Below, piece by piece: positions 10,263 through 36,627 of a stretch of 64,000 nt of DNA. The translations under genes and the position numbers were made by a program. The number at the start of each line of letters is the position of its first letter. Positions within the stretch are counted from its first letter, which is position 1. The notes beneath the pieces are model-generated. The model saw only the letters and a program-made list of their open reading frames with translations. It ran no database searches and was not told where the DNA came from. The stretch is from Clostridia bacterium (GTDB lineage: Bacteria > Bacillota > Clostridia > Oscillospirales > CAG-272): the NCBI GenBank assembly GCA_017471825.1, contig JAFURQ010000027.1, positions 59,478-123,477 of the forward strand. Direction: 5' to 3'.

Positions 10263-10487
10263 TTATTTTTCCACTTGCTCACTGTCGCACGGCGGATTTT
10301 CATTTTGTGTTATTGCCTCGTCTTGCGCATCCTCAGAGCTTTCTTGTATTTCGCTCATATATCCGGCGGTGATAATACCGGCAGGCAATGCGACTATTGC
10401 AATTCCGAGCACGGAAGAAATCATTGTAATAACCAACGATAAAAATGCACTTCTTGAACCTTCAATAAAAGCATTATTGAGAATACA
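10263..10487 (-). pseudogene. 3' remnant of an ion-transport (K+ channel-like) gene: last TM helix and acidic tail only
   Basis: The reverse frame reads ...SLVITMISSVLGIAIVALPAGIITAGYMSEIQE...EQVEK*, which resembles the post-pore S6 segment of bacterial ion transporters. The frame is closed by TAG at 10488-10490 and no pore or N-terminal part is present. The plus-strand ORF 10255..10545 is a shadow. Confidence 0.45.
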
Positions 10488-10503
10488 CTATTTTTCAATA
10501 TCC

Positions 10504-11238
10504 TTACCAATCGTTTTCTTCTTTAACAACAAATTTCCATCTTAGTTTTTCAGCTCTAATACTGCTATATTTTTTAATATGGTCAAAATCGACCTCATCA
10601 CTGTCTACCCAATAAACCATATCATCTTTAAATATTACACTGGAGGAATATATTCTGTTATATGGTCCAAAGGCAAAGTCGATACAGATACCGCCTTCAA
10701 ATTCTAAAATAGCATCAAACGCTGCTTGTGAGTTGAATTTTAATTGTACTGTAGCTTCTTCTTCGCAACTATAAGGATTTGATTTAGCTGTAATTGAAAT
10801 TAAATACCAATCATGAAATCCACCGGTGTGATTCATCATATCTTCTGCTTCATCTTCGTTAGTTATCTCATTCCATTTGTCAGGATCTATATTAGCATTC
10901 ATTTCTTTAGCTAAAGTTATATATTTTTCATCTACTTGATTAGATTGTTCAATAGCTTTAAATACACTGACGTCTTCAATTAACCAGGGATAACCGGCAC
11001 AACTATCGATTTCGCCCATATTAATTTTTAACTTTGACTTTCTAACAAAACCATCTTCATGTTCATTCATTAAACCAATTTGTCTATGACCGTCACATTT
11101 TGCTGAAAAATAAGCAACAATATCAAACTTTTCATCAATTGGATCATACACAACGTAATGAGGCATATAATCATACTTAAAGTAAGCGAATACATACGAA
11201 TAATAAACTTTACCTTTATACTCTATTCTTGCATACAT
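10504..11238 (-). CDS. hypothetical protein in an AT-rich island; the C-terminal half looks like a polymorphic-toxin immunity protein (speculative)
   Basis: The start was set at MYARIEYK (ATG at 11238) because it is preceded by AAGGAGAG. The longer ORF (to 11355) merely reads through a relic of the rumA 3' end. No family was recognised. Confidence 0.55.
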   Translation of the reverse strand: MYARIEYKGKVYYSYVFAYFKYDYMPHYVVYDPIDEKFDIVAYFSAKCDGHRQIGLMNEHEDGFVRKSKLKINMGEIDSCAGYPWLIEDVSVFKAIEQSNQVDEKYITLAKEMNANIDPDKWNEITNEDEAEDMMNHTGGFHDWYLISITAKSNPYSCEEEATVQLKFNSQAAFDAILEFEGGICIDFAFGPYNRIYSSSVIFKDDMVYWVDSDEVDFDHIKKYSSIRAEKLRWKFVVKEENDW

Positions 11239-11310
11239 AACATTTACGCTCTCCTTGTAAAGAATTTCGCCTGCGGGCGAAAGCGATATTATTTTGCTTT
11301 GCTCAATATA

Positions 11311-11355
11311 GTTTGTCTGACGCGTCAGACAAACGACACTCTCGACGTGGGTCAA
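11311..11355 (-). repeat. displaced copy of the rumA-family 3' end (encodes HVESVVCL), embedded in a 24-nt perfect palindrome
   Basis: Positions 11327-11349 (agacaaacgacactctcgacgtg) match 12872-12894 at 21 of 23 nt, and both encode HVESVVCL. The palindrome gtttgtctgacg/cgtcagacaaac spans 11311-11334. Confidence 0.6.
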
Positions 11356-11358
11356 GAC

Positions 11359-11416
11359 GCCAAAAGGTATATTTTTAGGCTAAAAACAGGGGTTGTAAAG
11401 CCAAAAGGTATATTTT
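11359..11416. repeat. 17-nt perfect direct repeat (gccaaaaggtatatttt) in two copies, 41 bp apart
   Basis: The copies at 11359-11375 and 11400-11416 were read directly. Confidence 0.8.
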
Positions 11417-11473
11417 ATTCTCTCTTTTCCCATTCTTTTGAACTGCGACTTAATTATTTATTTGATCGTTTTG

Positions 11474-12208
11474 TCAATCGCCGATAAACTTCCAATATTT
11501 TTTAGTTATAGCTTCTCTTATCTTATCTTCAAGCATAGCGGCGTGATCGTAATCTCGGCTCTCGTTCCATTCTTGACTACTGTAGCTTGCCGCCATTCTG
11601 CGATACTCCGCCCTTATCACTTCTCTTTGCTCCTCTGTCAGATAGCGAACAGGAGTTTTGCGTATGGTTTCCACATCGCACCCAAGCTCCTCGCCTCTAG
11701 CGCGCATTGTGCTATAATAGTTATCAAGAAGCACATTTTCGTCAATGGGATTTGTAATATCTAAGCTTTTGAGCATTTCGTTTTCACAGGGTGTCATATA
11801 TTCAAACGCGCTTATGTCCGTATAGCTTTTCGAAAAGCTCTCGCCGCGATGTAGAATTCTTTTTGTATCTCCATTCTTTATGTTTGGTGGAAAGTAGGCA
11901 AAGCTACCACTATCCAAGCCATGCTGTCCCCAGCCATAACCAAAAAATTGAAAATCCGGAAATGAATACTTACGGATACATACGTTTTTATCGTTTAGCA
12001 TTTCAATAAAAAGCGACTTTGCCTCGGGGCTTATGGCAACCTTTTCTACGCCGTTAACCTCCGTTTGGTATACAATCGAGTTATAGTTGCCGAATTGCTT
12101 TTTGCCCGCAACAGTGAAAATATATTTGCTATCCTCTTTTGCGGAATCGAAAACGAGCATATCCTCGCCGTTTTCGTCTTTATCAAGGTAAATTTTTATG
12201 TAGATCAT
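11474..12208 (-). CDS. hypothetical protein (244 aa), AT-rich island
   Basis: This is a long ORF with coding-like composition. No family was recognised. Confidence 0.55.
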   Translation of the reverse strand: MIYIKIYLDKDENGEDMLVFDSAKEDSKYIFTVAGKKQFGNYNSIVYQTEVNGVEKVAISPEAKSLFIEMLNDKNVCIRKYSFPDFQFFGYGWGQHGLDSGSFAYFPPNIKNGDTKRILHRGESFSKSYTDISAFEYMTPCENEMLKSLDITNPIDENVLLDNYYSTMRARGEELGCDVETIRKTPVRYLTEEQREVIRAEYRRMAASYSSQEWNESRDYDHAAMLEDKIREAITKKYWKFIGD

Positions 12209-12283
12209 AGTTATTCCTCTCTGTATGTTAAAGATACCGCTATAAAATGAACTTTTGAGTTTTGCTCAAAAGCAATATTGTCC

Positions 12284-12637
12284 TTAACTGTTTTCCTTTG
12301 CAGTGGTGATAGATTTAACTAACATACGGCGGATGATTCCACATTCTTGCAAAAGTTCTTTTGAAATTTGTTCGCTTATTGCATTTGAGCCGACGAGCAT
12401 TTCAATCCAATATTCTGTTTCACCGCACTCTTTTAGTGCAATATGGAATTTGTTTATAAAGTCTGCTTTGCTTACAGCATAGTTAGCCTCATGAATATTT
12501 GCTCCAATAGAGGTTGCACTCCTCACGATTTGATTTACAAGAACACCTCTGCCTTTGCGAGTGTCAACCTCGTCACAGACAGCGATTATGTGTAGAGCAA
12601 GTGCCTTTGCTCTTGTGCGTAATTCGGAATCTTTCAT
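12284..12637 (-). CDS. four-helix-bundle protein (23S rRNA intervening-sequence protein / DGR Avd-like family)
   Basis: The 117-aa protein carries ...QIVRSATSIGANIHEANYAVSKADFINKFHIALKECGETEYWIEML..., a typical TIGR02436/PF05635 pattern. Confidence 0.8.
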   Translation of the reverse strand: MKDSELRTRAKALALHIIAVCDEVDTRKGRGVLVNQIVRSATSIGANIHEANYAVSKADFINKFHIALKECGETEYWIEMLVGSNAISEQISKELLQECGIIRRMLVKSITTAKENS

Positions 12638-12659
12638 ATTCTTCCCCTTTGTGTGGTTG

Positions 12660-12850
12660 GTGAAGTTTTGCTCCTTCGTCGCAAAGTGAAGTTACTCACT
12701 TCGTTCGTAGTGAAGTTGTTCGCTTTGCTCACAGTGAAGTTAAGTTCGCCTCAAAATTACTTCTCACTTGCGCCGCAAGCGACGCAAACTTCACTTCGGC
12801 GGTAGCCGAAACTTCACTGCTTTGCAACTTCACTCGCCGCAGGCGAACTT
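12660..12850. repeat. motif array: GTGAAGT four times in direct orientation (24-26 nt period), then ACTTCAC three times (plus one variant), each separated by a different short hairpin
   Basis: GTGAAGT occurs at 12660, 12686, 12710 and 12734. ACTTCAC occurs at 12788, 12811 and 12827, with the variant acttctcac at 12769. The intervening hairpins are ttcggc-ggta-gccgaa, tgc-ttt-gca and tcgcc-gca-ggcga. A 9-bp pairing aagttcgcc (12742)/ggcgaactt (12842) could close the domain. Confidence 0.7.
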
Positions 12851-14229
12851 AGTTGTCGAGTCTGTCGTTTGAGACAAACGACAGACTCGACGTGTCCTGT
12901 CGCAGGAAAAAGGTCGAAGGGTGTAACTGTGCCGGGGGTATAGCCGAGGTCGGCAAAGAGGCGGCAGTCACGGGCAAGAGTCGTCGGATTGCAGGAGATA
13001 TAGACAATTCGTGAGGGGGAAAGAGATGCCGCAAAGCTTACAAGACGGGCATCGCAGCCCGCACGTGGCGGATCCAGAATTACAACGTCGGGGCGGATGG
13101 TGCGGCCAAGCTCGCGCTCGGCGCGTTCAAGGAGCTTTTCGGTGTCTTTGGCGTCACCCGTGTAAAATTTTGCGTGCTTTATATCGTTGGCGGCGGCGTT
13201 TTCGGTGGCGCATTTTACCGCGCTGTCAATGATTTCTATGCCGATAAGCTCGCCGCACTTGTCAGCCATTGAAAGACCGATTGAGCCTGCGCCGCAGAAA
13301 AGGTCGAGCACGGTGTCAGAGCTCTTTGGAGCGGCGAGCTCGCGTGCCTTGGCGTACAGCATATCCGCCGCCGCGCGGTTTACCTGATAAAACGAGGGGG
13401 CGGTTATCTTCAGCCTTACACCGCCGAGGGTGTCGAAAATGTAATCCCTGCCGAAAAGCGTGCGCCATCCGTTGCCGAGAATTACGTTCGTTGCCGCTGT
13501 GTTGGTATTCAGAAGTATTCCTACTATTTCAGGGTATCTCTCGTTCATTATCCGAACAAGCTCACGCTCGCAGGGAATTGAATCACCGTTTATAACGAGA
13601 GTCAAAAGAACCTCTCGGCTGATTTCGCCGCGGCGTAAATATACGTGCCGCAGGAGCCCTGTGCCGCTCTCTTCATCGTATACCGAAACAGAGTGCTTTT
13701 TGAAGAAGGTGGCAAGCGTGTCAAGAATTTCGCCGAAAATTTCGGGCGCAAGAGGGCAGTGGCGCGCCTCGGTTACCCTGTGCGATTTCGGCGCGTAAAA
13801 GCCTATTACGTAATTGCCATCCTTGCCGATAGCGATGGGGTACTGCGCCTTGTTCCTGTAGCCGACAACCTCGGGGGAGGGAACAGCGGGTGCGATTGCC
13901 ACCTCGCGCAGTCCCTCGTGAGCGAATGCCTCGCGCACGGTTTTCTCCTTCAGCTTCAGCTCATGCTCGTAAGAGATGCTTTTGTATGCACAGCTTTTGC
14001 AAGCCGATATATCGCATCTTCCGTCATGGCGCAAGGGGGATTTTTCTATATATTTCTCTACACGCCCTATGGCGTATGATTTATTTACCTTGATAATTCT
14101 CGAGTCTATAACGTCGCCGCTGATAGCATCCGAAACAAATACTATCTGCCCCTCGTGTCTGCCGACACCGAAGCCGAGATTTGTTATGTCGTTTATTTCG
14201 AGTCTGATAATATCGTTCTTTTTAAGCAT
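12814..14229 (-). CDS. 23S rRNA (uracil-5-)-methyltransferase, RumA/TrmA family (TRAM plus Fe-S plus SAM-methyltransferase domains)
   Basis: There is a TRAM-like N-terminus and a Cys cluster CDISACKSCAYKS. DLFCGAGSIGL, DPPRAGC and YISCNPTTLARD are class-I methyltransferase motifs. The C-terminal tail after HVESVVCL runs into the repeat array. Confidence 0.85.
   Translation of the reverse strand: MLKKNDIIRLEINDITNLGFGVGRHEGQIVFVSDAISGDVIDSRIIKVNKSYAIGRVEKYIEKSPLRHDGRCDISACKSCAYKSISYEHELKLKEKTVREAFAHEGLREVAIAPAVPSPEVVGYRNKAQYPIAIGKDGNYVIGFYAPKSHRVTEARHCPLAPEIFGEILDTLATFFKKHSVSVYDEESGTGLLRHVYLRRGEISREVLLTLVINGDSIPCERELVRIMNERYPEIVGILLNTNTAATNVILGNGWRTLFGRDYIFDTLGGVRLKITAPSFYQVNRAAADMLYAKARELAAPKSSDTVLDLFCGAGSIGLSMADKCGELIGIEIIDSAVKCATENAAANDIKHAKFYTGDAKDTEKLLERAERELGRTIRPDVVILDPPRAGCDARLVSFAASLSPSRIVYISCNPTTLARDCRLFADLGYTPGTVTPFDLFPATGHVESVVCLKRQTRQLSSPAASEVAKQ
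12855..12891. repeat. 16-bp perfect inverted repeat overlapping the last conserved codons of the rumA-family gene
   Basis: The sequence gtcgagtctgtcgttt gagac aaacgacagactcgac was read directly. Confidence 0.85.
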
Positions 14230-14293
14230 TTTTATCCTTTCTGCCTACCCGTGTGAAAAATATCGGCAGATTTAGTAAATAATTATTTACAAA

Positions 14294-15133
14294 TCAAATA
14301 AATCCTTCGCCGAATTTCGAGCGGTATTCCTTTGGCGTCATACCAAATGCCGCCTTGAAGGATTTGGTAAAATACGAGGCATCGGTAAAGCCGCATTCCT
14401 CGGCTATTTCCGCGATTGATTTGTCAGTCAGCTCGAGCATTCTCTTTGCCGCCTTGAAGCGATAGGCAATTATGTACTGCCTCAGCGTTATCCCCTTTTT
14501 TTCCTTCAGCATACGGCTGACGTAGAAGGGGTGATATCCGAATATAGCGCCGATTTCGGTGTTGGAAATCTCCTGGTGCGCGTTTTCCCTTATGTAGCTG
14601 TCGAGAGCCTCGACCATTCGCGCAGGCAGGGCATTTTCGCTCTGCGTTTCCGCGAGCTTCAGAAGCAAGAGCTTCAGCTCCGCTGAAACTTGCGCGCGCC
14701 ACTCGCCCTCAGCCGACGTCGCAACGTTGCACATATTGATTATTTTGTCGCGCTCTCCCTCTGCATCCTCGAGCAAGAGCCACTTGTCAAACGGCTCGAT
14801 ATCGGCAAATACGTGTGCCCTCGCGACGTCAAATTCCTCTGCCGTGCTCGGCATAATTTTCTCTATCGGCTCGGGCATTTCAGCAGTTATATCGAAGGCG
14901 AAAACGCAAGCGCGAAGATATTTGCCCTTTAGCTGATATGCGGTGCCTGCCGGGATGTAGAGAAGGTTTCCTGCTCCGAGGTGGAATTTTTTCTCATTAT
15001 CTATCCCAACCGTAACGTCGCCCGATATCAAATATATCAGCCTCGCATCGTAAGCGCGGCACTTTTTTGTGTTTGTTATTTTTTCATAAATTCCCGCTTC
15101 TCTGACAACGGGATTAAGACGTCTGAAATCCAT
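14294..15133 (-). CDS. AraC-family transcriptional regulator (cupin N-domain plus HTH)
   Basis: The C-terminal SIAEIAEECGFTDASYFTKSFKAAFGMTPKEYR is an AraC HTH. Confidence 0.8.
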   Translation of the reverse strand: MDFRRLNPVVREAGIYEKITNTKKCRAYDARLIYLISGDVTVGIDNEKKFHLGAGNLLYIPAGTAYQLKGKYLRACVFAFDITAEMPEPIEKIMPSTAEEFDVARAHVFADIEPFDKWLLLEDAEGERDKIINMCNVATSAEGEWRAQVSAELKLLLLKLAETQSENALPARMVEALDSYIRENAHQEISNTEIGAIFGYHPFYVSRMLKEKKGITLRQYIIAYRFKAAKRMLELTDKSIAEIAEECGFTDASYFTKSFKAAFGMTPKEYRSKFGEGFI

Positions 15134-15292
15134 AAAAGCTCCGTTTCTGCTGTCAAAATATCATACTCCATACTAATTTTAACACTAAAAACCGAAAAAA
15201 GCAATGCTATTTGCGTCTTTTTTGTTTTTAACCACTTTACAAAATGAATCCCTTGTGATAAAATATTCTCAATTCATTAAAAGAGGCGTCCT

Positions 15293-16300
15293 ATGGAGAA
15301 GATAAATACCAAAAATAACGTTAAGCTTTTTGCTTACGCGGGAATAATATTCGTGGTGCTCGTCTGGGGCTTGGTGCCGCCAACGGTATCCTACATATAT
15401 GATTTTTACTCGGGTGCAGTTTACAGCGCCGCGACCTCTCTTATTGCGGCGGTATCGCTTTTGCTCCTCTCGGTAAAAAAGCTTGATTTACTGACGAATG
15501 ATATGCTCAAAATCGCTATCCCCACGGGAATCTTCAACGGCCTTGCCGACCTCGTGCAAAAAATCGGTCTGCAGTACACCACCCCCACCAAATACGCGTT
15601 TCTTGAAAACCTCTCCTGCGTTGTCGTACCGATACTCCTTTTCATCCTTATCAGAAAAAGGCCCGGAGTTCTTACGATAATTGCAAGCATAGTCTGCCTT
15701 GCAGGCTCGTTTGTGCTCACGGGCATGAATTTTTCCGACGGTGCGGCATCCTTTGGCATAGGAGAAATCCTTTGCGCCCTCGCAGGCTGCTTCTATGGCG
15801 TCAATATCGCCATAACCGGTACGTATGCCAAAAAATTCTACGCTCCCCTCTACGTAATGGTGCAAATCTGGGTGCGCTTCGTTATTTCGAGCGCAACTGC
15901 GGTTGTCCTCAATTTCATAAATATCAACGGTCAACCGATAGAGCAGTTCAAATTTTCCTTTGATATATGGAATCTTCTCGTGCTTTTGGCGCTCGGACTC
16001 GTTTCCAACACGCTCTGCTGGACGATAAGAACCAACGCTATGAAGCACATCTCGCCCAACGCTGTCGCAATCATTATGCCGTTTGCCGCCGTTGTCACAG
16101 GCGTGGCTTCAGTAGCGCTCGGTATGGATGAGCTGACGCCCAATCTCTTGATAGGTGCGGGGCTCGGACTCGCCGCCGCCCTGATGTGCAGTTTTGACGA
16201 TATACTTGAAGGGAAGAAAGCGAATAAAAATAAAAGCTCGGATTCTGACGTTTCAGATTCGACAAACGCAGTTGAAGAAGCAACCGAAAAGATAAGCTAA
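15293..16300 (+). CDS. DMT-superfamily (EamA-like) transporter
   Basis: It has roughly 10 TM helices in two EamA-like halves and is divergent from the AraC regulator. Confidence 0.75.
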   Translation: MEKINTKNNVKLFAYAGIIFVVLVWGLVPPTVSYIYDFYSGAVYSAATSLIAAVSLLLLSVKKLDLLTNDMLKIAIPTGIFNGLADLVQKIGLQYTTPTKYAFLENLSCVVVPILLFILIRKRPGVLTIIASIVCLAGSFVLTGMNFSDGAASFGIGEILCALAGCFYGVNIAITGTYAKKFYAPLYVMVQIWVRFVISSATAVVLNFININGQPIEQFKFSFDIWNLLVLLALGLVSNTLCWTIRTNAMKHISPNAVAIIMPFAAVVTGVASVALGMDELTPNLLIGAGLGLAAALMCSFDDILEGKKANKNKSSDSDVSDSTNAVEEATEKIS

Positions 16301-16302
16301 CA

Positions 16303-16330
16303 AAAAAGCGCCGATGAGGCGCTTTTTTGT
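16303..16330 (+). terminator. rho-independent terminator
   Basis: The stem aagcgcc gatg aggcgctt is followed by TTTTTGTTT. Confidence 0.7.
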
Positions 16331-16363
16331 TTGTAATTAGCGACGAAGAACTCGTGGGAGAAT

Positions 16364-16407
16364 CTGCCCCGTCCTACGAGGCTTCTCACAGAGAAGCGAC
16401 GGGGCAG
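16364..16407. repeat. nested hairpin (10-bp outer stem, 7-bp inner stem) at the 3' end of the 4HB pseudogene
   Basis: The outer stem is ctgccccgtc ... gacggggcag and the inner stem is gcttctc aca gagaagc. Confidence 0.8.
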
Positions 16408-16769
16408 GGATTCGGCCTCCACTTTAGTTTCTTTTCTATCGTGATACAAGATGAGGTAAGCATTCTTTTTATTCTGCCGCAAAGATTACGGAGCGACTTG
16501 AAGGTTTGCTCGTCAATTGCACCCGATGCAAAGATAAGCTTGAGCCAAGACTCTGTTTCTGCACATTCTTTCCTTGCAATTTCGAGCTTGGAATGCATAT
16601 CTGCAAGGCTCTGGGGATATTGCGCCTCGGTAATATTGGCAAATACGCTTGACTAGGATTTCTTGATTTGAAAAACGGTGTTGGAGTCAATTTTGTGCTC
16701 ACTGCAAAGCTTGACAATTTTAACTGCCAATTCTTCGCTATACTCTAAAAGCAAATTGCGTTTTGCCAT
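16386..16769 (-). pseudogene. four-helix-bundle (Avd-like / 23S IVS protein) gene interrupted by an in-frame TAG
   Basis: From the ATG at 16769 the translation reads MAKRNLLLEYSEELAVKIVKLCSEHKIDSNTVFQIKKS*SSVFANITEAQYPQSLADMHSKLEIARKECAETESWLKLI.... The TAG at 16653-16655 sits where the family normally has Gly (G-[TS]-S-[IV]-x-A-N-I). AGGAGAAG lies upstream of the start. Confidence 0.7.
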
Positions 16770-16792
16770 CGTTCTTCTCCTATCCGTCCTAA

Positions 16793-16885
16793 ATCACGGC
16801 AGAGCCGTGATGCCATACGCCCGATGGGCGATTCCATACAATTCGCGAGAGCGAATTGATGCCATGCACAAGACCTTTGGTCTTG
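16793..16885. repeat. motif-hairpin array: GAT(G/T)CCAT(A/G)C three times, alternating with four different short hairpins
   Basis: The hairpins are at 16793-16811 (8 bp), 16819-16829, 16840-16857 (7 bp) and 16869-16885 (7 bp). The linker motifs are at 16809-16818, 16830-16839 and 16858-16867. Confidence 0.7.
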
Positions 16886-16893
16886 AATAAAAA

Positions 16894-16923
16894 AACCTAA
16901 ACCGAAACAATTCGATTTAGGTT
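16894..16923. terminator. bidirectional terminator-like hairpin
   Basis: The 8-bp stem aacctaaa...tttaggtt is flanked by an A-run upstream and a T-run downstream. Confidence 0.5.
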
Positions 16924-16928
16924 GTTTT

Positions 16929-17038
16929 TGGCGCAGAGGGAGGGATTCGATTCTCGCGCGAACTGCGCGCTCGGTCTTCCACGGTCGCGGACGTCCACAG
17001 GAAGTCCGCTCTACACCGTTTCCCCTTCGAATCCCTCC
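16929..17038 (-). other. unassigned 110-nt GC-rich element closed by a perfect 12-bp inverted repeat and ending in ...TCGAATCCCTCCCTCTGCGCCA (tRNA-3'-end-like)
   Basis: ggagggattcga (16939-16950) pairs with tcgaatccctcc (17027-17038). There is an internal 6-bp hairpin gcggac/gtccgc. The minus-sense 3' end resembles a T-loop, acceptor and CCA, but no cloverleaf can be drawn. Confidence 0.3.
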
Positions 17039-17049
17039 TTTTACAAAGC

Positions 17050-17084: not shown

Positions 17085-17159
17085 TGGTGACCCGTGGGAG
17101 AATCGAACTCCCGTTTCAGCCTTGAGAGGGCCGTGTCTTAGCCGCTTGACCAACGGGCC
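17085..17159 (-). tRNA. tRNA-Glu (anticodon CUC)
   Basis: The minus-sense sequence GGCCCGTTGGTCAAGCGGCTAAGACACGGCCCTCTCAAGGCTGAAACGGGAGTTCGATTCTCCCACGGGTCACCA folds into a cloverleaf. The anticodon loop is CT-CTC-AA, the T-loop is TTCGATT, and CCA is encoded. Confidence 0.9.
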
Positions 17160-17549: not shown

Positions 17550-20500
17550 ATGAAAAAGTCAATCAAAATTTTGACTCTTGTCCTCGCGTTGGCGTTGATA
17601 TGCGGTGCGCTTGTTGTAAGTGCATTTGCTACTGAAGAAGCGGCTGTAACAGGCGTTACTCAGAGCATACTCATCGACTTCCAGGACTCTCCCACAGAAG
17701 AGGCGTCCTATTTGGACGGCGTTGCTCAATCTGACATTTCAACCGTTCCCACATCTCAGGGCGCAGTTCCTAAGATCGTTTGGAAGGAAACAGGTAAGAT
17801 TAAGATGACTACCTCCGAGTATGACACGGAAAACAAGTACATGCTCTGGACCACGACGGTTGGTGGCAGCACAACCTACATTGACTGTTATCTTCATAGC
17901 AAGCCCTCCGCTTCCGGCGAAGTGCTTAATATGACAGGTAAGGCAGGCACCGATGTAAAATACATCGTTATGGACGTAGACCTTATGCTTCCCACCGAAG
18001 GTGTTGCTCCTAAGAACGCAAACATTCAGTTCCTCAGAAGAACCGTTGCTGACGGCGCTACCGCTAACTCCTTCGTTGATAATGCTACTAAGTACACCGG
18101 TACGGGACTTCCCACAAGCGTTCTGAATATTCAGGCAGACGGTAAGATCAACTGCTATAATTCCGCCGGCGCTTGGGTAGCTAACGGTAAGATCGTCCTC
18201 GGCACCTCTTGGACTCACATTACCGTAGTTCTTGAGAACGAGATTCTTCAGGACGGTGACGGCGTTAATTATGTTAGAACCACCGAGTATTTGTATGCAA
18301 ACGGTGCTCTCGTAGACTCGTTCGTTTGGTTCGATAACAGCGCATGTCCCGACGCATCGGTTTACTGGAATTCAGATAAGACCAACTTCAACTACTGTGA
18401 CGTCAGAGTTAACGTAGCCGGTAACGATACCGAGGCTCAGCTCGCTATCGATAACTTCAACGTTCGTATGCTCAGCAATGAGTACAACGGTAACCTTAAG
18501 ACCGTTCTTACCGACGGCACAAGCATTACCCTCGCTGACGTTAACGTTTACGACCCCGAGAACATGCCCTTCGGTACTCTCGCGGCTACCAACGAAACTC
18601 AGGGCACCTACTACGATAGCTTTAACAAGGCTGTTGCAGCAGCTGCTGATGACGACGTGCTCCTTCTCAACGCTGATCTTACCAAGGACGTAACCCTTGA
18701 TAAGTATCTTGAAATCTACCCCGGCGAATATTCCGTAGGCGATCACCTTAAGGTTGCTGAGGGCTGGCAGGTTGAGTACGATGATGTTGCACTCTGCTAC
18801 TTCACCTCCGAGATTACCGACCCCTACACCGTTACCTGGGGCGCTTGTAACTGCGGACTTGCTGAATGTGATGCAACTCACCCCGGCAACGCTACCTCCG
18901 AGCTCGGTATCGGCGCTAACATCTACGACGCATACGAGCAGGCTGTTGAAAACGGCTACGCTTGGGGCGTTACCGTAGACGGCCGTTACTACTACCTTGC
19001 AGGCTGGACGAACGCTGATACAAGCGAAGAGCTTGCAGCTGACGCTGTAGTAACCGACGAAATGCTCGGCACGAGCGTTACCTACAACCCCATCATCAAG
19101 AGCAAGCTTCCCCTTTACTCTTACGTTGATGCTACCGGCAACGCAGCTATCGGCTTCGACGATAACACTCTTTCTGAGATAGTTGAGCTTGCAAAGCCCA
19201 ACTCCACCATCACCCTTCTTGCTGACGTAGTGATTCCCGATACGGCTCCTATATCAATCAGCAAGAACCTTACCATTGACCTCAACGGTCACGTACTCTC
19301 CGACGTTAAGGTTACCGCTAAGTATGCTACCTTCTCTCCCGGTGCTAACTTCACCATCAAGGGTGACGTAGAAGGCTCTACCGTAGTAAAGGCTCACAAT
19401 ACCAGCGGTACCAACTATCAGGGTGTATTTATTCAGCCCTCTTCTTCATCGGCTGTTATCAATTTCGAGGGTGAAAACCTCGCTGTATTCGTTCCCTGTC
19501 TTGTTGCTTCCTGGGGCACCACCATCAACCTCAACATTGACGGCGGCTACTATGCTAAGGGTAACTCCTCCGACAACGGCGGTTACATGTATGCAAACGC
19601 AAGCGCTAAAACAAACGTTAGCCTTAAGAACGCAACCTTCGGCGATATCCACGGCTTTGATATCTATTATACCAATACCGTGCCTCACACCTTCACGGCT
19701 GATAACTGTATATTCCTTGACTATGTAATTAACGTATTCGTCCCCGGACTTACGGACGCAACTATCACTAACTGCTACATCGCATCGACCGCTAAATTTA
19801 AGTATGAGGCTTCGTGGAAGAACAATGGAAGCCCTGCAGACCTCGGCGGTTCTGCATACCTCGGCGCAGGCAACTGGATTTCAGCCGATGCTGAGATCTC
19901 GCTTCTCAAATACTCAGAGAATATCGATGCTTACGATGCAGCTAACAGCATAGTTGTTCCCGTACAGAAGATCACCTTCTCGACCACTAACGGTGTTGTA
20001 AGCTACGCTATAGCTACTACCGAAACCACCTACACATTCCAGAAGTACACTGCAGACTCTTCCAAGCTTGCTAACGTTACCTGGTATGACACCGACGGCA
20101 CTACCGTTCTCGGCACTACCGTAGGTATCCCCGGTCTTAACGCTTCTGCTCCCGGCGTTCCTGTTGCTGACGGTTGGGTAAATGCTCATTACACCGATTG
20201 GACCAACGCTAACGGCGAGAAGACCACTCTCGTTCCCACCGATGCAACCGAGGTTGCCTTCACTCTCGTTGCGGGCTCCGCGGCTGATTACACCGTAGGT
20301 AAGGTTCCGCTCTGGATGAACTGGGCATATCTCTCTCACTCCAGCATTAACGTTTACGTTCCCGCAAACGCTCCCGCAGGTGTAACTCTCACCGACGCGA
20401 GCCTTAACGGAACCAACCGTTGGGCTAACCTTAACGCTAACACCGGATACACCGTTGCTGACACTGCAGTTAACTGCATGTCCGTATGGCCTCAGATCCA

Positions 20501-25427: not shown

Positions 25428-25428
25428 G

Positions 25429-30660: not shown

Positions 30661-30694
30661 TCTTGCTTCTCCTCAAAATACTTTAGTTTAATTG

Positions 30695-30755: not shown

Positions 30756-30782
30756 ACGGCTATTGGAAAGGAAGAAGTTAAA

Positions 30783-31724: not shown

Positions 31725-31821
31725 TTAGTATTTATTTTTATTGTAATTGTGATACAGTGTAGTTTCTAAGCAATCTGAAAAGTATACATTTTATTGCTCT
31801 CATAGAGCATATAAAGTAAAT

Positions 31822-31856
31822 ACAAAAAGAGAGGGAAGCCTTAGGGCAACCCTCTC
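31822..31856 (-). terminator. rho-independent terminator (minus strand)
   Basis: The 7-bp stem gagaggg...ccctctc is followed by TTTTTG on the minus strand. Confidence 0.6.
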
Positions 31857-31873
31857 AAATTTTATTTATGCAG
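31852..31873. repeat. 22-nt perfect repeat, copy 2 (ctctcaaattttatttatgcag)
   Basis: It is identical to 30253-30274, but here it lies 38 nt downstream of the xylA-fragment stop. Confidence 0.85.
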
Positions 31874-31910
31874 TTGTTTCGCCTTTTGGATAGCAATTTC
31901 AGAGTAGCTT

Positions 31911-32367
31911 TTATCCAAACAGCGTTCTGTTCAGAACGCTCTCCAAATATTCCTGTCTGCCGCTGTTCGGTGTCGGGCAAGTGCGCATTTTTTCCGCGTG
32001 TTCTGCAAGCTCGGCAAGAGTTGTTTTTCCTGCTCTTATCTTCTGTCCAAGCTCGCTGTTAAAGCTCGAGTATTTTTTCTCAACGAACATATCAAGCTCG
32101 CCGTTCTCGATGAGCTCTGCGGCCTTGATAAGACCGAGCGCAAAGGTATCCATACCAAGAATATATGCATAGAACATATCCTCGTAGGTGTTTGAGGGTC
32201 TGCGGTTTTTTGCATCAAAGTTGAGGCCGCCCGTAAGACCGCCTGCCTTAAGCACCTCGTACATGCACATAGTGCTCTCGTATACGTCGTACGGAAACTC
32301 GTCAGTATCCCAACCGAGCAAATAGTCGCCCTGATTTGCATCAATAGATCCAAGCATTGAAAATGGC
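31911..32367 (-). pseudogene. xylA: xylose isomerase, C-terminal fragment only (about 150 aa)
   Basis: GSIDANQGDYLLGWDTDEFP...GGLNFDAKNRRPS...MDTFALGL is the XylA C-terminal third. The upstream part of the frame is unrelated sequence. Confidence 0.75.
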
Positions 32368-32673
32368 TTGTTGCGTGCTATATTTGATTTTATTGATAAC
32401 AATTTTAACAAAAGCTGTACTCTTGAGGATTTGAGTATCGCCATTGGATATAACAGCTCCTATCTCTCCAGATATTTCAAGGAATTTACCAATATGACGT
32501 TTGTTTCCTGCGTCAACCGATACAGAATCAGCAGGGCATGCTATATGTTAAAAAACAGTGATAAAACAGTGCTTGAATGCGCATACGAATGCGGATACAA
32601 ATCCTTGAGGAGCTTTAACAGAAATTTTATGCTGTACGTTGGGGTAACACCAACCGATTATAGAACAAACTAA
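32368..32673 (+). pseudogene. AraC-family HTH domain fragment (no sensor domain)
   Basis: The 101-aa fragment covers only the two-HTH DNA-binding domain (LEDLSIAIGYNSSYLSRYFKEFT..., ...ECGYKSLRSFNRNFMLYVGVTPTDYR). It abuts the xylA fragment head to head. Confidence 0.55.
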
Positions 32674-32685
32674 AACAAATAAAAA

Positions 32686-32728
32686 AGCAAAATCAGACCT
32701 GAAACGGAATGATTTTGCTTTTTATTTT
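32686..32728. terminator. bidirectional terminator-like hairpin
   Basis: The 10-bp stem agcaaaatca ... tgattttgct is flanked by an A-run and a T-run. Confidence 0.6.
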
Positions 32729-32873
32729 ATGCCGCCTTCGGCATAGCATTGAATTCTGCCGCGTTTAGCATATTCTCAATGAAAATTCCATACCCTTCAG
32801 TTGGATTTGCTACCATAACGTGAGTTACAGCGCCGACGAGCTTCCCATCCTGTATGATAGGGCTGCCTGACAC
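32727..32873 (-). pseudogene. displaced relic of the spoIVB 3' end (48 codons plus stop; second copy)
   Basis: It encodes [47 protein letters not shown]. It is colinear with the last 48 codons of the intact gene, but the DNA has diverged by roughly one position in four to five. Homology stops abruptly after atagggctgcctgaca (32857-32872), which is identical to 35618-35633. Confidence 0.75.
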
Positions 32874-32898
32874 GAGTGTGTTCAAGTAGGGACAACAG
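32874..32898 (+). repeat. 22-nt motif copy A (gagtgtgttcaagtagggacaacag), abutting spoIVB relic 2
   Basis: It matches 35312-35334 at 22 of 23 positions. Confidence 0.8.
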
Positions 32899-33082
32899 AT
32901 TTTAACAAATTATTGACATCTTCGACACCATTTATTGAGAAAAAACGTCTTTAGTCGTAGTATTTTAGCATATTTGCCACCCAAACAGCTGATAGCGAAC
33001 TATTTTTCTTGATTTTTTAACGTTTATAAGCGAGGGAATTCATAGGACGATTCCCACCCAAATAATTTTTGTTTCCATTGTT

Positions 33083-33229
33083 TTACTTTGGATTTTTTTG
33101 GGCCTTCTTTGACGATTGTTGATTTTTCTTTTTGTAATAATCCCATATAGCAAACTTCTGTTTGCGGCGGTTTTCGAGTGTTATGTTTTTTGATGGTTTG
33201 CCCTTTTTCAAAAAAGGAGATTTAGGCAT
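33083..33229 (-). CDS. possible 48-aa lysine-rich peptide, translationally coupled to the upstream gene
   Basis: The peptide is MPKSPFLKKGKPSKNITLENRRKQKFAIWDYYKKKNQQSSKKAQKNPK. Its ATG overlaps the upstream stop (ATGCCTAA). It could be a chance ORF in AT-rich DNA. Confidence 0.25.
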   Translation of the reverse strand: MPKSPFLKKGKPSKNITLENRRKQKFAIWDYYKKKNQQSSKKAQKNPK

Positions 33230-34019
33230 TGCTATCACCCCCTAAAATGAAATTTTCTTTTTCGTCAAATTTTCCGTTTTCAACGAGTATGTTTATTTGC
33301 TTGGATATTTCTTCGTTCGGCTCGCGCATTGTTTTCTCAAGTAAAAGTATTTTGCTGACATTGTAAATAGGAATAGAGTACAAAGTGTCAAATTTATCTT
33401 TTTCGAAATATAACAAATACCAATGCTCTTTTTTTACCGAAAACTCAAGCGCTGCGCAAAGAGCGCGTATAACCCTGCCGCCAATGTTAAATTGAAGAAT
33501 AAGCTCGTTCTCTATAGCCTCGTTCAGTTTGTTATACTCCTCGTTAAAGCAAATTCGCTCTTTTTGATATTCGGACTGATTAAAGTATTCGTGAATTAAA
33601 TTGCGAAGATATGCGCTGCGTTTTATTCCTATAGAATCAAGTCTGGCAAACAGCTCTGCATATAAATCTTCGTTTTTAACGTCAAATCGAATATTAATAA
33701 TATCATCGCACTCGTATTCGCTTTCGTCAAAATACAAGTAATCAAATGACTCGGCTAAAAAGTCGAGTATTTTTTCTTGCATTCCTTCAGCTATGCTTGC
33801 TTTAATGTTTTTATCAAGATATTCGCGCAAAAATCCTTTCTTGTAAGCGCGATAAGCAAGCATGTTAGGAAGCATTTTGTTGAAAAATTCATTTTCGTTT
33901 CCAAGTCCGTTTTTCTTAATGAAATTTCTTTTAGAAACTTCAGCGGTCATAAGTCTTGCTAACAAGCTCGGAACACGTAATGTCATTGTTTGTGGGTAAA
34001 ATTTATCTCTCATAATCAT
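33222..34019 (-). CDS. hypothetical protein with a WYL-like C-terminal region (possible ligand-sensing regulator)
   Basis: The segment ...ILQFNIGGRVIRALCAALEFSVKKEHWYLLYFEKDKFDTLYSIPIYNVSKILLLEKT... fits the WYL pattern (x-WYL-x(8-12)-hydrophobic-x-[IL]-x-R/N-[IV]). The N-terminal part is unassigned. Confidence 0.5.
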   Translation of the reverse strand: MIMRDKFYPQTMTLRVPSLLARLMTAEVSKRNFIKKNGLGNENEFFNKMLPNMLAYRAYKKGFLREYLDKNIKASIAEGMQEKILDFLAESFDYLYFDESEYECDDIINIRFDVKNEDLYAELFARLDSIGIKRSAYLRNLIHEYFNQSEYQKERICFNEEYNKLNEAIENELILQFNIGGRVIRALCAALEFSVKKEHWYLLYFEKDKFDTLYSIPIYNVSKILLLEKTMREPNEEISKQINILVENGKFDEKENFILGGDSNA

Positions 34020-34178
34020 AGTATATCATAAATGTAATGCAAAATCAATATATTTTTTGATATATATCAAGTAATATTCACTATTCTTAATAAATAAGTG
34101 TAATACAATATATGAATGCGATTGTATGCTATTATTCTTGTTTTGCTAGTGCTATAATATGAGTGCAATCAAAAAAGA

Positions 34179-34207
34179 TTGACAAATATATGAAAGGATG
34201 TTATAAT
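34179..34207 (+). promoter_or_regulatory. perfect consensus sigma-A promoter
   Basis: TTGACA (34179-34184) is followed by exactly 17 nt and TATAAT (34202-34207). The first ATG of the downstream ORF is at 34211. Confidence 0.6.
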
Positions 34208-34210
34208 TTT

Positions 34211-34702
34211 ATGGGATTAATAAAACTTGTTAATCAGTGGGTATATAAGCACTCTCGAAAGCCGGAGCATTACAAAAGAGTGAAAAATCCGCCAAAAACG
34301 ATTTCCGAAAAGATAAAGCGACCACAAGATGCACGTCAGCAACAGTATAACAATTGGTGCAAAAGATATGGCGTGTATAGCGGTTCATATTTGCCGAAAA
34401 ACCCGGATGCTCTTACGCGAAAAGGGTGGAGAGAAACCACTAATGTGAAAGATAAGACTAAAAAGCATAGGGAATTCCAACGCAAATCAACTTCTCAGAT
34501 GGTTCGATATGATAGCAAAGAGTTCAAAAAAGGGCGATATGAAGATGAACACTACCACTGGGAAAACGCCAAAAGCATTAAAGAAAGAAGAAAGCTTGGC
34601 GAGATGGAAAAATATGTTGATAGGTATGGAAACGTGTGCGCGGATGGCTCCAAGGAGTCGCACTTAGCACCAAAGGACAAAACGTACAACTTTAGGAGAT
34701 GA
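34211..34702 (+). CDS. small, very basic protein resembling a stand-alone polymorphic-toxin C-terminal (nuclease-type) module
   Basis: MGLIKLVNQW...LPKNPDALTRKGWRETTN...HREFQRKSTSQMVRYDSKEFKKGRYEDEHYHWENAK...YVDRYGNVCADGSKESHLAP is Lys/Arg-rich and has His-containing motifs (H-Y-H-W, S-H-L). The start is uncertain: GTG at 34163 or ATG at 34211. No family was assigned with certainty. Confidence 0.5.
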   Translation: MGLIKLVNQWVYKHSRKPEHYKRVKNPPKTISEKIKRPQDARQQQYNNWCKRYGVYSGSYLPKNPDALTRKGWRETTNVKDKTKKHREFQRKSTSQMVRYDSKEFKKGRYEDEHYHWENAKSIKERRKLGEMEKYVDRYGNVCADGSKESHLAPKDKTYNFRR

Positions 34703-35133
34703 TTACAATGAAAAAGCAAGAGTTATTAGATCTGCTTAACAAGGCGGCTGATAGTATAAATTTGCACGATGCAAGCATGTATGGCTTCAAGTGGATAAAC
34801 AGCACCGTTGAGTTTATTATATGTCTTGGCAGCTATCACTATATCATTAACGAGTTAGAAGAACTTGTCGACGATGTAAATAACCGTGTTGTTTTAACCT
34901 TGAAATTTGATGGTATTGAAAATGTTGAATGCGAGTTTTGCGAAGATTTCAGATACGACGATGCTGAAATAATGGAAAATAATCAGCTTGAAAACGGAAC
35001 TTTTGAATTTGTTTTTTTAGAATGCGGTAACCCCGGTAAAATATCATTTAGATATACCAAATTTGAGTGGGATGTTGTTGGTGAATTCGATTATGAGCAA
35101 ATCAAACAGTGGTGTAAAGAAAACGGGCTATAA
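34699..35133 (+). CDS. acidic 144-aa protein, immunity/antitoxin-like partner (speculative)
   Basis: Its start overlaps the upstream stop (ATGA). It is acidic. The pattern LHDASMYGFKWINSTVEF...VVLTLKFDGIENVECEF... resembles immunity proteins of polymorphic toxin systems. Confidence 0.55.
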   Translation: MITMKKQELLDLLNKAADSINLHDASMYGFKWINSTVEFIICLGSYHYIINELEELVDDVNNRVVLTLKFDGIENVECEFCEDFRYDDAEIMENNQLENGTFEFVFLECGNPGKISFRYTKFEWDVVGEFDYEQIKQWCKENGL

Positions 35134-35222
35134 AAAGGAATATATGGATATATCTCTTGATATAGATATGAACATCACCATAACATAAGTTCTATATGAT
35201 GCGGCATTGTCCAGGGAATACC

Positions 35223-35246
35223 AGTGTGTTATAATAGGGATAACAC
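35223..35246 (+). repeat. 22-nt motif copy B (agtgtgttataatagggataacac), degenerate
   Basis: It shares AGTGTGTT-A-A-TAGGGA-AAC with copies A and C. It is also internally palindromic (gtgttat...ataacac). Confidence 0.65.
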
Positions 35247-35283
35247 AATTACTATTAAAATCGAATAATGCTCGGACGAAAGA

Positions 35284-35297
35284 CTGTTGTCCCTATT
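35284..35297 (-). repeat. inverted partial copy of the 22-nt motif (ctgttgtccctatt)
   Basis: It forms a perfect 12-bp inverted repeat with 35323-35334 (aatagggacaac) across a 25-nt spacer. Its 12 nt ctgttgtcccta are the exact reverse complement of tagggacaacag at 32887-32898. Confidence 0.8.
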
Positions 35298-35311
35298 ATA
35301 ACTCACTCGTG

Positions 35312-35334
35312 GAGTGTGTTCAAATAGGGACAAC
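35312..35334 (+). repeat. 22-nt motif copy C (gagtgtgttcaaatagggacaac)
   Basis: It matches copy A at 22 of 23 positions. Confidence 0.8.
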
Positions 35335-35340
35335 TTTTTC

Positions 35341-35470
35341 TATAATCAAGCGAAGCGAATCGACAAGCTTGATTGTCAGCAAGCGAGCGCAGATTGCCCC
35401 GCGAGCGCTCCGTAAACGGAGCAATACACGAAGTGCCGCCGCTCGAGCGGCGAAGCTCGCAAGGAGTATA
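35341..35470. repeat. GC-rich cluster of short palindromes just downstream of the spoIVB stop
   Basis: The palindromes are aatcaagc...gcttgatt (8 bp), gcgagcgc in two direct copies, ctccg-taaa-cggag, and the 16-nt perfect palindrome cgccgctcgagcggcg. Confidence 0.7.
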
Positions 35471-35487
35471 ATTTCACTTTTTCCTCA

Positions 35488-36627
35488 TTACGCCGCCTTT
35501 TGCTGCACCTGACTTTCTGCCGCGTTTAACATATTCTCTATAAAAATCCCGTATCCTTCCGTTGGGTCAGCAACCATCACGTGGGTGACCGCTCCAACTA
35601 ATTTCCCATCTTGTATAATAGGGCTGCCTGACATTCCGCGGACGATGCCGCCCGTGAGGGCTATCAGGGTTGGGTCGGTGACCTTGATTTTGAAGGATTT
35701 TGAGCCGGTTGAGGAGTAGTCAACGTCCTTGATTTCGACGTTGAATATACCGCGCTTGCCGTTCTTGACTGTTGAAATTATTTGTGCCGCGCCGCATTTT
35801 ACCTCGTTGCTTTTTGCGGCGGGCATCAGCTTGTCGCAATAGTCGGGTAGGGTATCGAGCGTACCGAAAACGCCGCACTCGGAATTTTTGGCAATAGAGC
35901 CGAGTGTTGCTTGCTTCAGCACTCCCGTAAGCTCGCCTGCGTGTCCGACCTCGCCCTTCTTACAGCCGCCGAGAGTTACAGAGTTAACCGTGCCGCTTCT
36001 GACGCTGACGTAGCCTGTTCCGTCTGCGGCGGAGACCCCGTGACCAAGACCGCCAAAGGCGAGCGTTTCGGGATCGATAAACGTGACAGTGCCAATGCCT
36101 GCGGTGTGAGCGCGAAGATTTACGCCGAGCTTGTAGACTCCGTCACAGAGCTTGGGTACGGCGGTTACGTTAAGTATTTCTCCGCCTCGAATTATTTCAA
36201 GCTCAAGCTTTTTACCGCCGGAATTTTTCACCGCATCCTCCACCTCGGAGCATTCGTGGACATCTTTACCGTTTACCTTTAATATTCTGTCACCGACAAG
36301 GAGCACGCGTGAGGAGGAGCCGCTTGTCACGGATACGCCGTCCTCGTTAATTATAAGCCCAAAGGCAGAGCCGCCGGGGTATAGCATAATAGCCTCGTCG
36401 TCTTTCCTTTTACCGCCGAAGAAGAGCTCGTAGATTCTTGAGGAAACCTCAACGTTTTTTGATACCGCAGCAACGCCGCCGTCGCTTAAGGTGGCAGGCG
36501 TGTAACATTTTTCACTGTATAAATCGGCAAAACCTGCTGATGCAGAACCGCTGACGGCGGTGCCGAGCAGGCACGCAAGCATACAAACAGCGGTTGTAAA
36601 TTTTAACAATATTTTTCTCATTCCCAT
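35488..36627 (-). CDS. spoIVB: SpoIVB peptidase (S55 family, PDZ plus serine protease)
   Basis: There is a signal/TM N-terminus and a PDZ-like region. GTVTFIDPETLAFGGLGHGV contains the catalytic His, and GMSGSPI contains the catalytic Ser. Confidence 0.85.
   Translation of the reverse strand: MGMRKILLKFTTAVCMLACLLGTAVSGSASAGFADLYSEKCYTPATLSDGGVAAVSKNVEVSSRIYELFFGGKRKDDEAIMLYPGGSAFGLIINEDGVSVTSGSSSRVLLVGDRILKVNGKDVHECSEVEDAVKNSGGKKLELEIIRGGEILNVTAVPKLCDGVYKLGVNLRAHTAGIGTVTFIDPETLAFGGLGHGVSAADGTGYVSVRSGTVNSVTLGGCKKGEVGHAGELTGVLKQATLGSIAKNSECGVFGTLDTLPDYCDKLMPAAKSNEVKCGAAQIISTVKNGKRGIFNVEIKDVDYSSTGSKSFKIKVTDPTLIALTGGIVRGMSGSPIIQDGKLVGAVTHVMVADPTEGYGIFIENMLNAAESQVQQKAA

Follow-up and report, generated by a model that had tools for sequence, protein, structure and literature searches.

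Candidate non-autonomous integrative cassettes of two unrelated families at the 3' ends of three conserved genes in a Clostridia genome

A 64,000-nucleotide stretch of a Clostridia bacterium genome (GCA_017471825.1, contig JAFURQ010000027.1, positions 59,478 to 123,477; hereafter the window, and the one part of this genome analysed) carries three conserved genes, rumA, tRNA-Glu(CTC) and spoIVB, each followed by hairpins, a short segment of other DNA and a second, diverged copy of the gene's own 3' end. How did these segments arrive, and do they belong together? An initial annotation had taken all three for one kind of miniature cassette, serviced in trans or inserted by a less conventional mechanism. 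Its observation is largely right; the single shared mechanism is not. We think it probable, with real room for doubt, that the three loci hold non-autonomous integrative cassettes of two unrelated families, which would be moved by recombinases acting in trans.

The window is core chromosome (topA, nrdD, polA, hprK, a ribosomal-protein cluster, rpoA) with a mean GC content of 45.6%. The three anchor genes all lie on the minus strand and are intact (Table 1), and a relic of each gene end lies 0.74-2.8 kb downstream of the intact copy. All three gene-end copies are direct repeats that score above every dinucleotide shuffle. For rumA, 12856-12894 and the relic at 11311-11349 are identical at 29 of 35 positions (best shuffle 21), and the relic coding sequence still reads HVESVVCLTRQ. 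For tRNA-Glu, 14 of 15 positions agree between 17090-17104 and 16350-16364 (best shuffle 12). The spoIVB copies (35515-35633 and 32754-32872) match at 82% over 119 nt, with a best window of 49/60 against a shuffle maximum of 32. Direct copies of the gene end thus stand at both borders of every cassette, as the definition of cis-mobilizable elements (CIMEs) asks (PMC5704250). Hairpin clusters lie directly 3' of all three genes, with leader folds at z = -5.3 (rumA), -7.9 (tRNA-Glu) and -2.2 (spoIVB) against shuffles; the tRNA-Glu and spoIVB clusters and leaders matched no RNA family in Rfam.

No recombinase or reverse transcriptase domain was matched by Pfam among the window ORFs tested, tblastn with four large serine recombinase queries gave no match within the window, and profile searches of the three cassettes found no relaxase, transfer or recombinase domains. 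No dif-like, attC or attI site and no integron integrase was identified, no formal attC/dif search having been made. The initial annotation had described just this, an intact gene, a palindrome or hairpin cluster right after it, a diverged distal duplicate and no recombinase at each locus, and these points stand. It had also placed the distal rumA border near 10263, well clear of where we find the relic, and had called the cargo AT-rich, which holds for rumA (39.5% GC) and spoIVB (34.7%) but not for the tRNA-Glu cassette (47.3%).

For the spoIVB cassette (2.76 kb) a family of enzymes can be named. The duplication begins exactly at the catalytic-serine motif, GM|SGSP. The two copies encode the same residue in 41 of the first 42 codons, and most of their nucleotide differences are synonymous; each therefore evolved as a functional gene end. 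A clean terminator follows the distal copy, which is the displaced native end; the proximal copy, we infer, arrived with the element. The relic starts at the same codon in the window and in four other loci, and in each it adjoins a conserved end motif (GTTGTCCCTA..CACTCGTG). Two of these (L217, L225) come from the comparison set of 80 metagenome spoIVB loci (<=56% identity) and repeat the cassette design at smaller size, with a BspA-type leucine-rich-repeat (LRR) protein in a 0.9-kb cassette and an EVE-HNH protein in a 1.3-kb cassette. The other two (L282, L283), contigs from a viral collection, carry three tandem large serine recombinases (557, 567 and 538 residues; PF00239, PF07508, PF13408) before the end motif and relic. 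Because the same end motif and relic junction stand there beside recombinases, the window copy is a non-autonomous derivative, and we conclude that the spoIVB cassette is a non-autonomous, CIME-like member of a serine-recombinase element family targeting spoIVB (family B). Within GMSGSP, the crossover probably falls on the TG of the Met codon or immediately beside it. L283 has one more large serine recombinase gene (6843-7871), its fourth, which starts ~140 nt past the spoIVB relic and indicates a second element stacked at the same site.

The 23-nt end motif GTTGTCCCTACTTGAACACACTC has four matches against 0.22 expected. Copies A-C lie 150-270 nt past the spoIVB stop, in the same arrangement as in two other loci (L211, L205), and copy D meets the relic. 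The cassette keeps both junctions and recombinase-type end motifs and would be movable only by a related recombinase in trans; the circle junction predicted on excision is GTTGTCCCTACTTGAACACACTCG-TG-TCAGGCAGCCCTATTATACAAG. A literature search found no paper on spoIVB together with a serine recombinase.

The cargo pair o179 and o144 had been read as toxin/immunity-like, for which we found neither homology support nor a recognisable toxin domain; both lack matches in Pfam, PHROGs and NCBIfam and anything significant among PDB sequences. The o179 family consists of stand-alone proteins of 150-190 residues. Together the two genes form a conserved module; one relative belongs to a defence island, and a second occupies a small variable gap flanked by core genes. 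No protein common to all spoIVB mini-cassettes was found. The longest o179 reading contains a perfect plus-strand sigma-70 consensus promoter (TTGACA and TATAAT 17 nt apart, with TG), and the true start is probably the ATG at ~34211, as in 163-residue homologues.

The rumA and tRNA-Glu cassettes form another family (family A). The last 15 codons of rumA, a gene for a 5-methyluridine (m5U) methyltransferase, run into the inserted element, and relatives align only to ~residue 456. The perfect palindrome P0 overlaps this gene end and is followed by an array resembling the Gut-1 RNA motif: AACTAAGTT, then four copies of GTGAAGTT, each with a GC-rich hairpin, then four copies of AACTTCAC with hairpins. 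The gene for Avd1, a small Avd-like protein, comes next (cut-offs 33.8 bits for PF05635 and 24 bits for TIGR02436), then a hairpin and ORF244. We rejected P0 as the native rumA terminator: ~60 other rumA loci are without it, and it has no T tract. Indeed, a palindrome overlapping the rumA end occurs solely in array-bearing loci (0 of the ~60 others), and its arms vary between species yet remain complementary. The rumA relic is of the type of locus L006, with a collapsed GCGATAT-type array behind it, so two elements are stacked at the rumA site; the ORF beyond is probably cargo of the older cassette. The variable region between the relic and a GNAT gene also holds a 57-residue ORF (10263-10436, minus strand) with no Pfam match, probably a gene fragment, which recalls, we assume, the C-terminal end of a potassium-channel-type membrane protein.

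Family A recurs in other genomes. Among 80 rumA loci from GTDB genomes, a generic scanner that assumes no motif placed arrays directly after rumA in L003, L006, L007, L009, L040 and L049, plus the window's own strain; one further array follows tRNA-Glu(TTC) in L049, and there is none elsewhere in these loci. L004 has no array and carries instead a 3.55-kb rumA cassette with a relic, its right end and junction as in the window and its cargo a C5 methylase of a restriction-modification system and two unknown proteins. In L005, L008, L014, L018, L021, L027, L045 and L082, RumA bears a conserved C-terminal extension (...LSKLN.KQHIE..DMDEL...); in L005 and L008, the loci whose downstream sequence was read, it is ~100 residues long. 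Here the same gene end has taken another course.

The Avd-like genes reveal transfer between hosts. Avd1 has 7693 homologues, the best 120 clusters being 84-97% identical. In all three long contigs with Avd1 relatives (L288-L290) the gene lies 180-220 nt after a tRNA_U5-meth_tr gene. These methyltransferase genes are different paralogues in different neighbourhoods, each with a host-specific palindrome and a GTGAAGTT array. Between the window and L288, L289 and L290, the methyltransferases are 36%, 45% and 35% identical and the Avd proteins 91%, 91% and 87%. Identity of 87-91% in the module against 35-45% in the host gene establishes that the module is horizontally mobile. Between the window and L003 the values are 67% (methyltransferase) and 53% (Avd), and between L003 and L049, 39% and 85%; motif type goes with the lineage of Avd rather than with the host. 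The Avd2 lineage of the tRNA-Glu cassette (1491 homologues; intact relatives 83-94% identical) behaves likewise: in three of three long contigs the Avd gene stands just after tRNA-Glu, tRNA-Met or tRNA-Val and terminators, with full arrays of motif ATGGAATC / GATTCCAT. These comparisons demonstrate the anatomy of family A, its recurrence in other genomes, its horizontal transfer and the tracking of motif with Avd lineage. The initial annotation's expectation of further examples was borne out at rumA (L004), spoIVB (L217, L225), tRNA-Glu (L003-L007) and other m5U-methyltransferase genes (L288-L290).

The same contigs bear on the origin of the palindrome. In L288 it is imperfect, its right arm mismatching the host codons; in L290 the arm lies within a 130-150-nt direct repeat flanking a 1328-bp unit (array, Avd, ORF208). 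The mismatch and the repeated arm indicate that the right arm is supplied by the element. Copying of this arm from the host at insertion is weakened by the L288 mismatch and by the arm lying within the repeat in L290 and L293. We had also considered L292 as a circular molecule and withdrew this, a unit-length contig being expected from assembly breaks at the direct repeat. Cargo of related cassettes includes a restriction-modification system and EVE-HNH, LRR and T5orf172 proteins. Avd is the sole protein conserved across family A cassettes, and since no other protein is common to them the unknown ORFs are unlikely to be mobility enzymes.

Elsewhere, a gene is enclosed by mutually inverted arrays: Avd in L304 (1400-2120), where outer AACTAAGTT ends adjoin hairpins and give a transposon-like look, and a 237-residue non-Avd gene in L142 (5142-6165). 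A loose search of viral contigs for three motif copies returned mostly chance matches and two real arrays, one of them solely in a flank. A AGGGACAA core lies near ends or module borders of rumA cassettes (as CAGGGACAAATGTTAC) and is part of the spoIVB end motif too (as TAGGGACAAC; L004 ~11460 and ~14823, L040 ~11496, window 12270-12283 and 32874-35334); it may reflect related recombinases, or chance.

The tRNA-Glu cassette has a truncated leader and an Avd-like pseudogene. A structured unit follows the tRNA, and the 3' arm of its closing stem runs on as TCGAATCCCTCCCTCTGCGCCA, resembling the 3' end of another tRNA. The Avd2 leader consists of a CAAGACCAAAGGTCTTG hairpin, then CATGGCATC / TATGGAATC / TATGGCATC with one hairpin apiece. 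A deletion has removed the reverse half, so that the forward half of the array now joins the final reverse hairpin. Avd2 and Avd1 share 45% identity, and PF05635 is present in the intact relatives of Avd2. Two Avd-like genes with motif-hairpin leaders had been noted by the initial annotation; both exist, one of them a pseudogene. Downstream of tRNA-Glu in L003-L007 come non-coding units ~200-310 nt long, some of them tandemly arranged, and each unit closes with an incomplete copy of the 3' end of the tRNA. Where the tRNA-Glu sequence differs (L004, L005) the copy matches that version, and in L004 and L006 an inverted copy lies directly after the terminator. These layered units mark the tRNA-Glu locus as a layered hot spot, with the window relic being of this older unit type.

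Two observations concern this locus. A strain 99.8% identical to window 12864-17043 (L309) differs at the cassette's proximal border: a different tRNA's 3' end, GGTTCGAATCCCATCATCTCCACCA, lies upstream of the structured unit (L309 1-120), replacing the tRNA-Glu terminator region, and the hairpin at ~16990-17012 has a compensatory change. An in-frame TAG is present in both tRNA-Glu-adjacent Avd-like genes (window Avd2; L049 12764-13111) at different positions, with close relatives intact, and may be coincidental decay.

Gut-1 was reported solely from human-gut metagenomes, as an orphan motif, in a model that covers the forward half only and was judged a free-standing non-coding RNA without context (PMC2864571). 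RF01706 scores 31.8 bits at 12783-12855 and 34.7 bits in L006, both under its gathering score of 50 bits; the reverse half of the rumA array matches weakly on the opposite strand. The architecture of four UGAAAU-like linkers and three covarying hairpins is present, and sequences flanking the Gut-1 seeds show the same layout: before them a tRNA 3' end or a stop codon, after them arrays of the reverse motif. In an alignment of six arrays the motifs are invariant and the hairpins carry compensatory changes. RNAalifold on six GTGAAGTT arrays supports forward-reverse motif pairing and the local hairpins, with compensatory change in 8 of 45 pairs. Motif types differ by lineage (GTGAAGTT, ATGAATTG, GCGATAT, TCGATAT, ATGGAATC), and forward/reverse complementarity is kept in all five, a pattern that suits RNA pairing and inverted sites for protein binding alike. 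The 594 kb of spoIVB loci contain no Gut-1-type array, and the spoIVB ends and cargo differ from those of the other two cassettes, which separates the loci that the initial annotation had placed in one family.

The forward motif and hairpin (GUGAAGUU UCGGC..GCCGA, 12768-12845 and related arrays) recall what we take to be the 23S rRNA sequence around the RumA-methylated U1939 (GCGAAAUUCCUUG UCGGG..UCCGA). By that analogy, one possibility is that the motif-hairpin units mimic substrates of the neighbouring m5U methyltransferase. The Avd protein of diversity-generating retroelements (DGRs) is a pentamer that binds RNA stem-loops and is an obligatory reverse transcriptase partner (bioRxiv 10.1101/2023.10.23.563531); because it does, each Avd-like lineage may by analogy bind its own array as an RNA leader.

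These data suggest a common outline. Each cassette would enter by recombination within the conserved 3' part of its target gene, bringing a replacement gene end and displacing the old end downstream as a relic. The core of family A would be an array of four 7-9-nt motifs, each with a variable hairpin, and four inverted copies, plus an Avd-like gene. This module would land directly 3' of a hairpin at m5U-methyltransferase or tRNA gene ends, through a site-specific recombinase presumed to be encoded elsewhere. At rumA, the element would supply the right arm of P0, the left arm being the gene's last conserved codons, and excision would give a circle with the junction ATACCTTTTGGCGTCTTGACC-CACGTCGAGTCTGTCGTTTGTCTCAAACGAC.

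Several results weigh against this outline, mostly for family A. No recombinase is linked to the family in any locus examined, the recombinase search in this organism covers one 64-kb window, and viral contigs, when scanned for the rumA right end, yielded no match. Family A junctions differ by subfamily, GACC|CACGT (window, L004) and AAACC|GTCGTG (L290), which makes homology-driven integration possible. For several rumA loci that bear arrays, no relic lies within 10 kb. In L293 the end of ORF208 leads across the junction, array and Avd to the start of ORF208, which suggests a circle or a tandem; this contig is the only one of its kind and could be misassembled. The window copies show decay (Avd2 stop codon, collapsed arrays), and the recombinase-bearing relatives of the spoIVB cassette keep decay of a larger element live for the window copy. 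The insertion or excision polymorphism sought by the initial annotation did not appear at the rumA cassette: this species' only contigs are identical or end at the palindrome. Its proposal of service in trans gains a named enzyme family for spoIVB (L282, L283) and none for family A. Its less conventional mechanism is required by no evidence and keeps some probability for the Avd/array module, whose recombinase was not found.

The first alternative, which we judge unlikely, is that the cassettes are immobile remnants of larger integrase-bearing prophages, integrative conjugative elements (ICEs) or integrative mobilizable elements (IMEs), their shared look being a generic signature of site-specific integration. 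The spoIVB family does have recombinase-bearing relatives, the Avd2 stop, collapsed arrays and nearby gene fragments look like decay, and the CIME literature gives exactly such a route (PMC5704250). Against this, mini-cassettes of 0.9-3.6 kb share the same ends and carry unrelated cargo in distant hosts (L217, L225, L004), and repeated independent reduction to one minimal form is less likely than mobilisation or exchange of cargo. No large parent is seen for family A, whose modules are 87-91% identical where the target genes are only ~35-45% identical. Independent deletion of a larger element, named by the initial annotation as an outcome that would overturn it, is a live reading for spoIVB and does not hold in full across the loci.

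A bolder reading of family A, to which we give a low chance, makes the Gut-1-type array and its cognate Avd-like protein the self-contained core of an undescribed class of recombinase-less modules that home 3' of hairpins at tRNA and m5U-methyltransferase genes. A pentameric protein would bind four or five repeated motifs, and host or trans-acting enzymes would move the module, possibly through an RNA or single-strand hairpin intermediate. No published description of the Avd/array module was found in a literature search.

It is quite improbable, in our estimate, that array and Avd are instead a structured RNA and RNA-binding protein of RNA-modification and tRNA loci, spread by homologous recombination after uptake. 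The strict placement after m5U-methyltransferase and tRNA genes would suit such an accessory, as would the palindrome built on coding sequence with compensatory changes, the junction positions that differ among subfamilies, the failure to find a promoter-like site between rumA and Avd1, and the presumed likeness of motif and hairpin to the RumA substrate around U1939. However, in L304 the module stands behind an unrelated gene for a membrane protein, in L142 arrays surround a gene other than Avd, and the close relatives L004 and L005 are without the module; relics and direct repeats point to insertion, not allelic replacement.

A retroelement, in which a reverse transcriptase encoded elsewhere and the Avd-like protein copy RNA into the target 3' end beside the hairpin, is very improbable: the layout is DGR-like (target 3' end, hairpin, avd, second gene-end copy) and Avd is the obligatory, stem-loop-binding partner of DGR reverse transcriptases (bioRxiv 10.1101/2023.10.23.563531), but no reverse transcriptase was found in the window ORFs tested or in any cassette, the duplicated copies show no adenine bias, the rumA duplicate is merely 35 nt, and housekeeping genes and tRNAs, rather than variable ligand-binding proteins, serve as targets. 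A DGR proper is rejected, there being no reverse transcriptase and the spoIVB duplicates differing by all substitution types, mostly synonymous.

Large-serine-recombinase integrative elements include ones that interrupt sporulation genes such as sigK. The spoIVB family resembles them in its sporulation target, its fixed short-core crossover and, in relatives, recombinases beside the end motif; sigK-type elements interrupt their gene, whereas spoIVB is regenerated here and the window copy is without a recombinase. Read as integrative cassettes, all three elements resemble CIMEs in having no integration or transfer genes and in being stacked beside older remnants (the rumA relic and collapsed array; L283). 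Known CIMEs derive from streptococcal ICEs and IMEs with tyrosine or serine integrases and are usually larger than the 0.7-2.8 kb found here; recombinase-bearing relatives exist here solely for the spoIVB family, and no parent element is known for family A. Integrative mobile elements exploiting XerCD (IMEX), pdif modules and integron cassettes are likewise small, recombinase-less cargo with palindromic or hairpin bounds, often with defence- or toxin-type genes, but they target dif or attI rather than gene 3' ends. The window array shares with Gut-1 four GUGAAAU-like motifs, three covarying hairpins, a gut origin and the same seed flanks, and differs in its scores (31.8-34.7 bits against 50) and in a motif sequence that varies by lineage. 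DGR Avd and the proteins of 23S rRNA intervening sequences belong to the same family (PF05635), small four-helix bundles beside structured RNA; Avd1 and Avd2 differ from these in having no reverse transcriptase, template/variable repeat pair or adenine mutagenesis, and in not lying inside an rRNA gene.

Table 1. Coordinates of the anchor genes, cassette features and relics, numbered as in the window.
Feature	Position	Strand	Evidence or comparison
ORF beyond rumA relic	10504-11241	-	No match in Pfam, PHROGs, NCBIfam
Older GCGATAT-type array remnant, ATATCGC and hairpin	11265-11289	-	Comparison with L006
rumA relic 3' end HVESVVCLTRQTN, own palindrome with 12-bp arms, L006 type	11311-11349	-	
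rumA cassette right end, two 17-nt AAAATATACCTTTTGGC copies abutting relic	11359-11416	-	Homologous end in L004
ORF244, cargo	11474-12208	-	No match in Pfam, PHROGs, NCBIfam, PDB sequences
Avd1, Avd-like four-helix-bundle protein, 117 residues	12284-12637	-	PF05635 84.3 bits, TIGR02436 97.7 bits
Gut-1-like array	12645-12854	-	RF01706 31.8 bits; fold z = -5.3; alignment, RNAalifold
P0, perfect palindrome with 17-bp arms, left arm the V-E-S-V-V-C codons of rumA	12855-12891		
rumA-family m5U methyltransferase gene, intact	12814-14229	-	Pfam TRAM and tRNA_U5-meth_tr
Hairpin and partial direct copy of tRNA-Glu 3' end GATTCTCCCACGAGT	16350-16407	-	Homologous ends in L003-L007
Avd2, Avd-like pseudogene	16386-16769	-	In-frame TAG at 16653-16655
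Truncated Gut-1-type leader of Avd2	16788-16885	-	Comparison with full arrays of L297, L300, L303
Structured unit closed by 12-bp stem	16929-17038	-	Fold z = -7.9
tRNA-Glu(CTC), intact	17085-17159	-	ARAGORN; Rfam 59.9 bits
Relic (native) spoIVB 3' end	32727-32872	-	Native terminator 32677-32728
End motif D, GTTGTCCCTACTTGAACACACTC	32874-32896	-	Meets relic after 'G' and common TG
o265, cargo	33222-34019	-	No match in Pfam, PHROGs, NCBIfam, PDB sequences
o179 and o144, two-gene cargo module	34163-35133	+	Consensus promoter 34179-34207
23-nt end motif, three copies: A and B palindromic, C ~40 nt away	35222-35334		
Replacement spoIVB 3' end, catalytic-serine codons to stop	35488-35633	-	Start point as in L217, L225, L282, L283
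spoIVB, intact	35488-36627	-	Full Peptidase_S55 at 231 bits, and PDZ

Other features of the window lie outside the cassettes. An S10-Clostridia ribosomal-protein leader (45517-45594, plus strand, 48.8 bits) fits a Clostridia host. Beside the tRNA-Glu locus, 17550-21152 (plus strand) is a 1200-residue ORF with no Pfam match at E <= 1e-4. Two C-terminal gene fragments overlap, one of xylose isomerase (31911-32444, minus strand), the other of an AraC-type helix-turn-helix regulator (32368-32673, plus strand); it looks as if a deletion took both N-termini of a divergent pair of xylA and its regulator.

For Gut-1, an orphan since 2010 to which no organism, context or function had been assigned, this is a first genomic context. 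Stand-alone Avd-like (PF05635) genes, which are very abundant and unexplained, are here joined with Gut-1 in one mobile module, and a module with a defined landing place opens protein-RNA binding, excision and target choice to experiment. spoIVB, a sporulation protease gene, is added to the targets of serine-recombinase elements, together with miniature derivatives that carry defence-type cargo. For annotation, these gene ends are integration hot spots, at which chimeric C-termini and relic gene fragments are to be expected.

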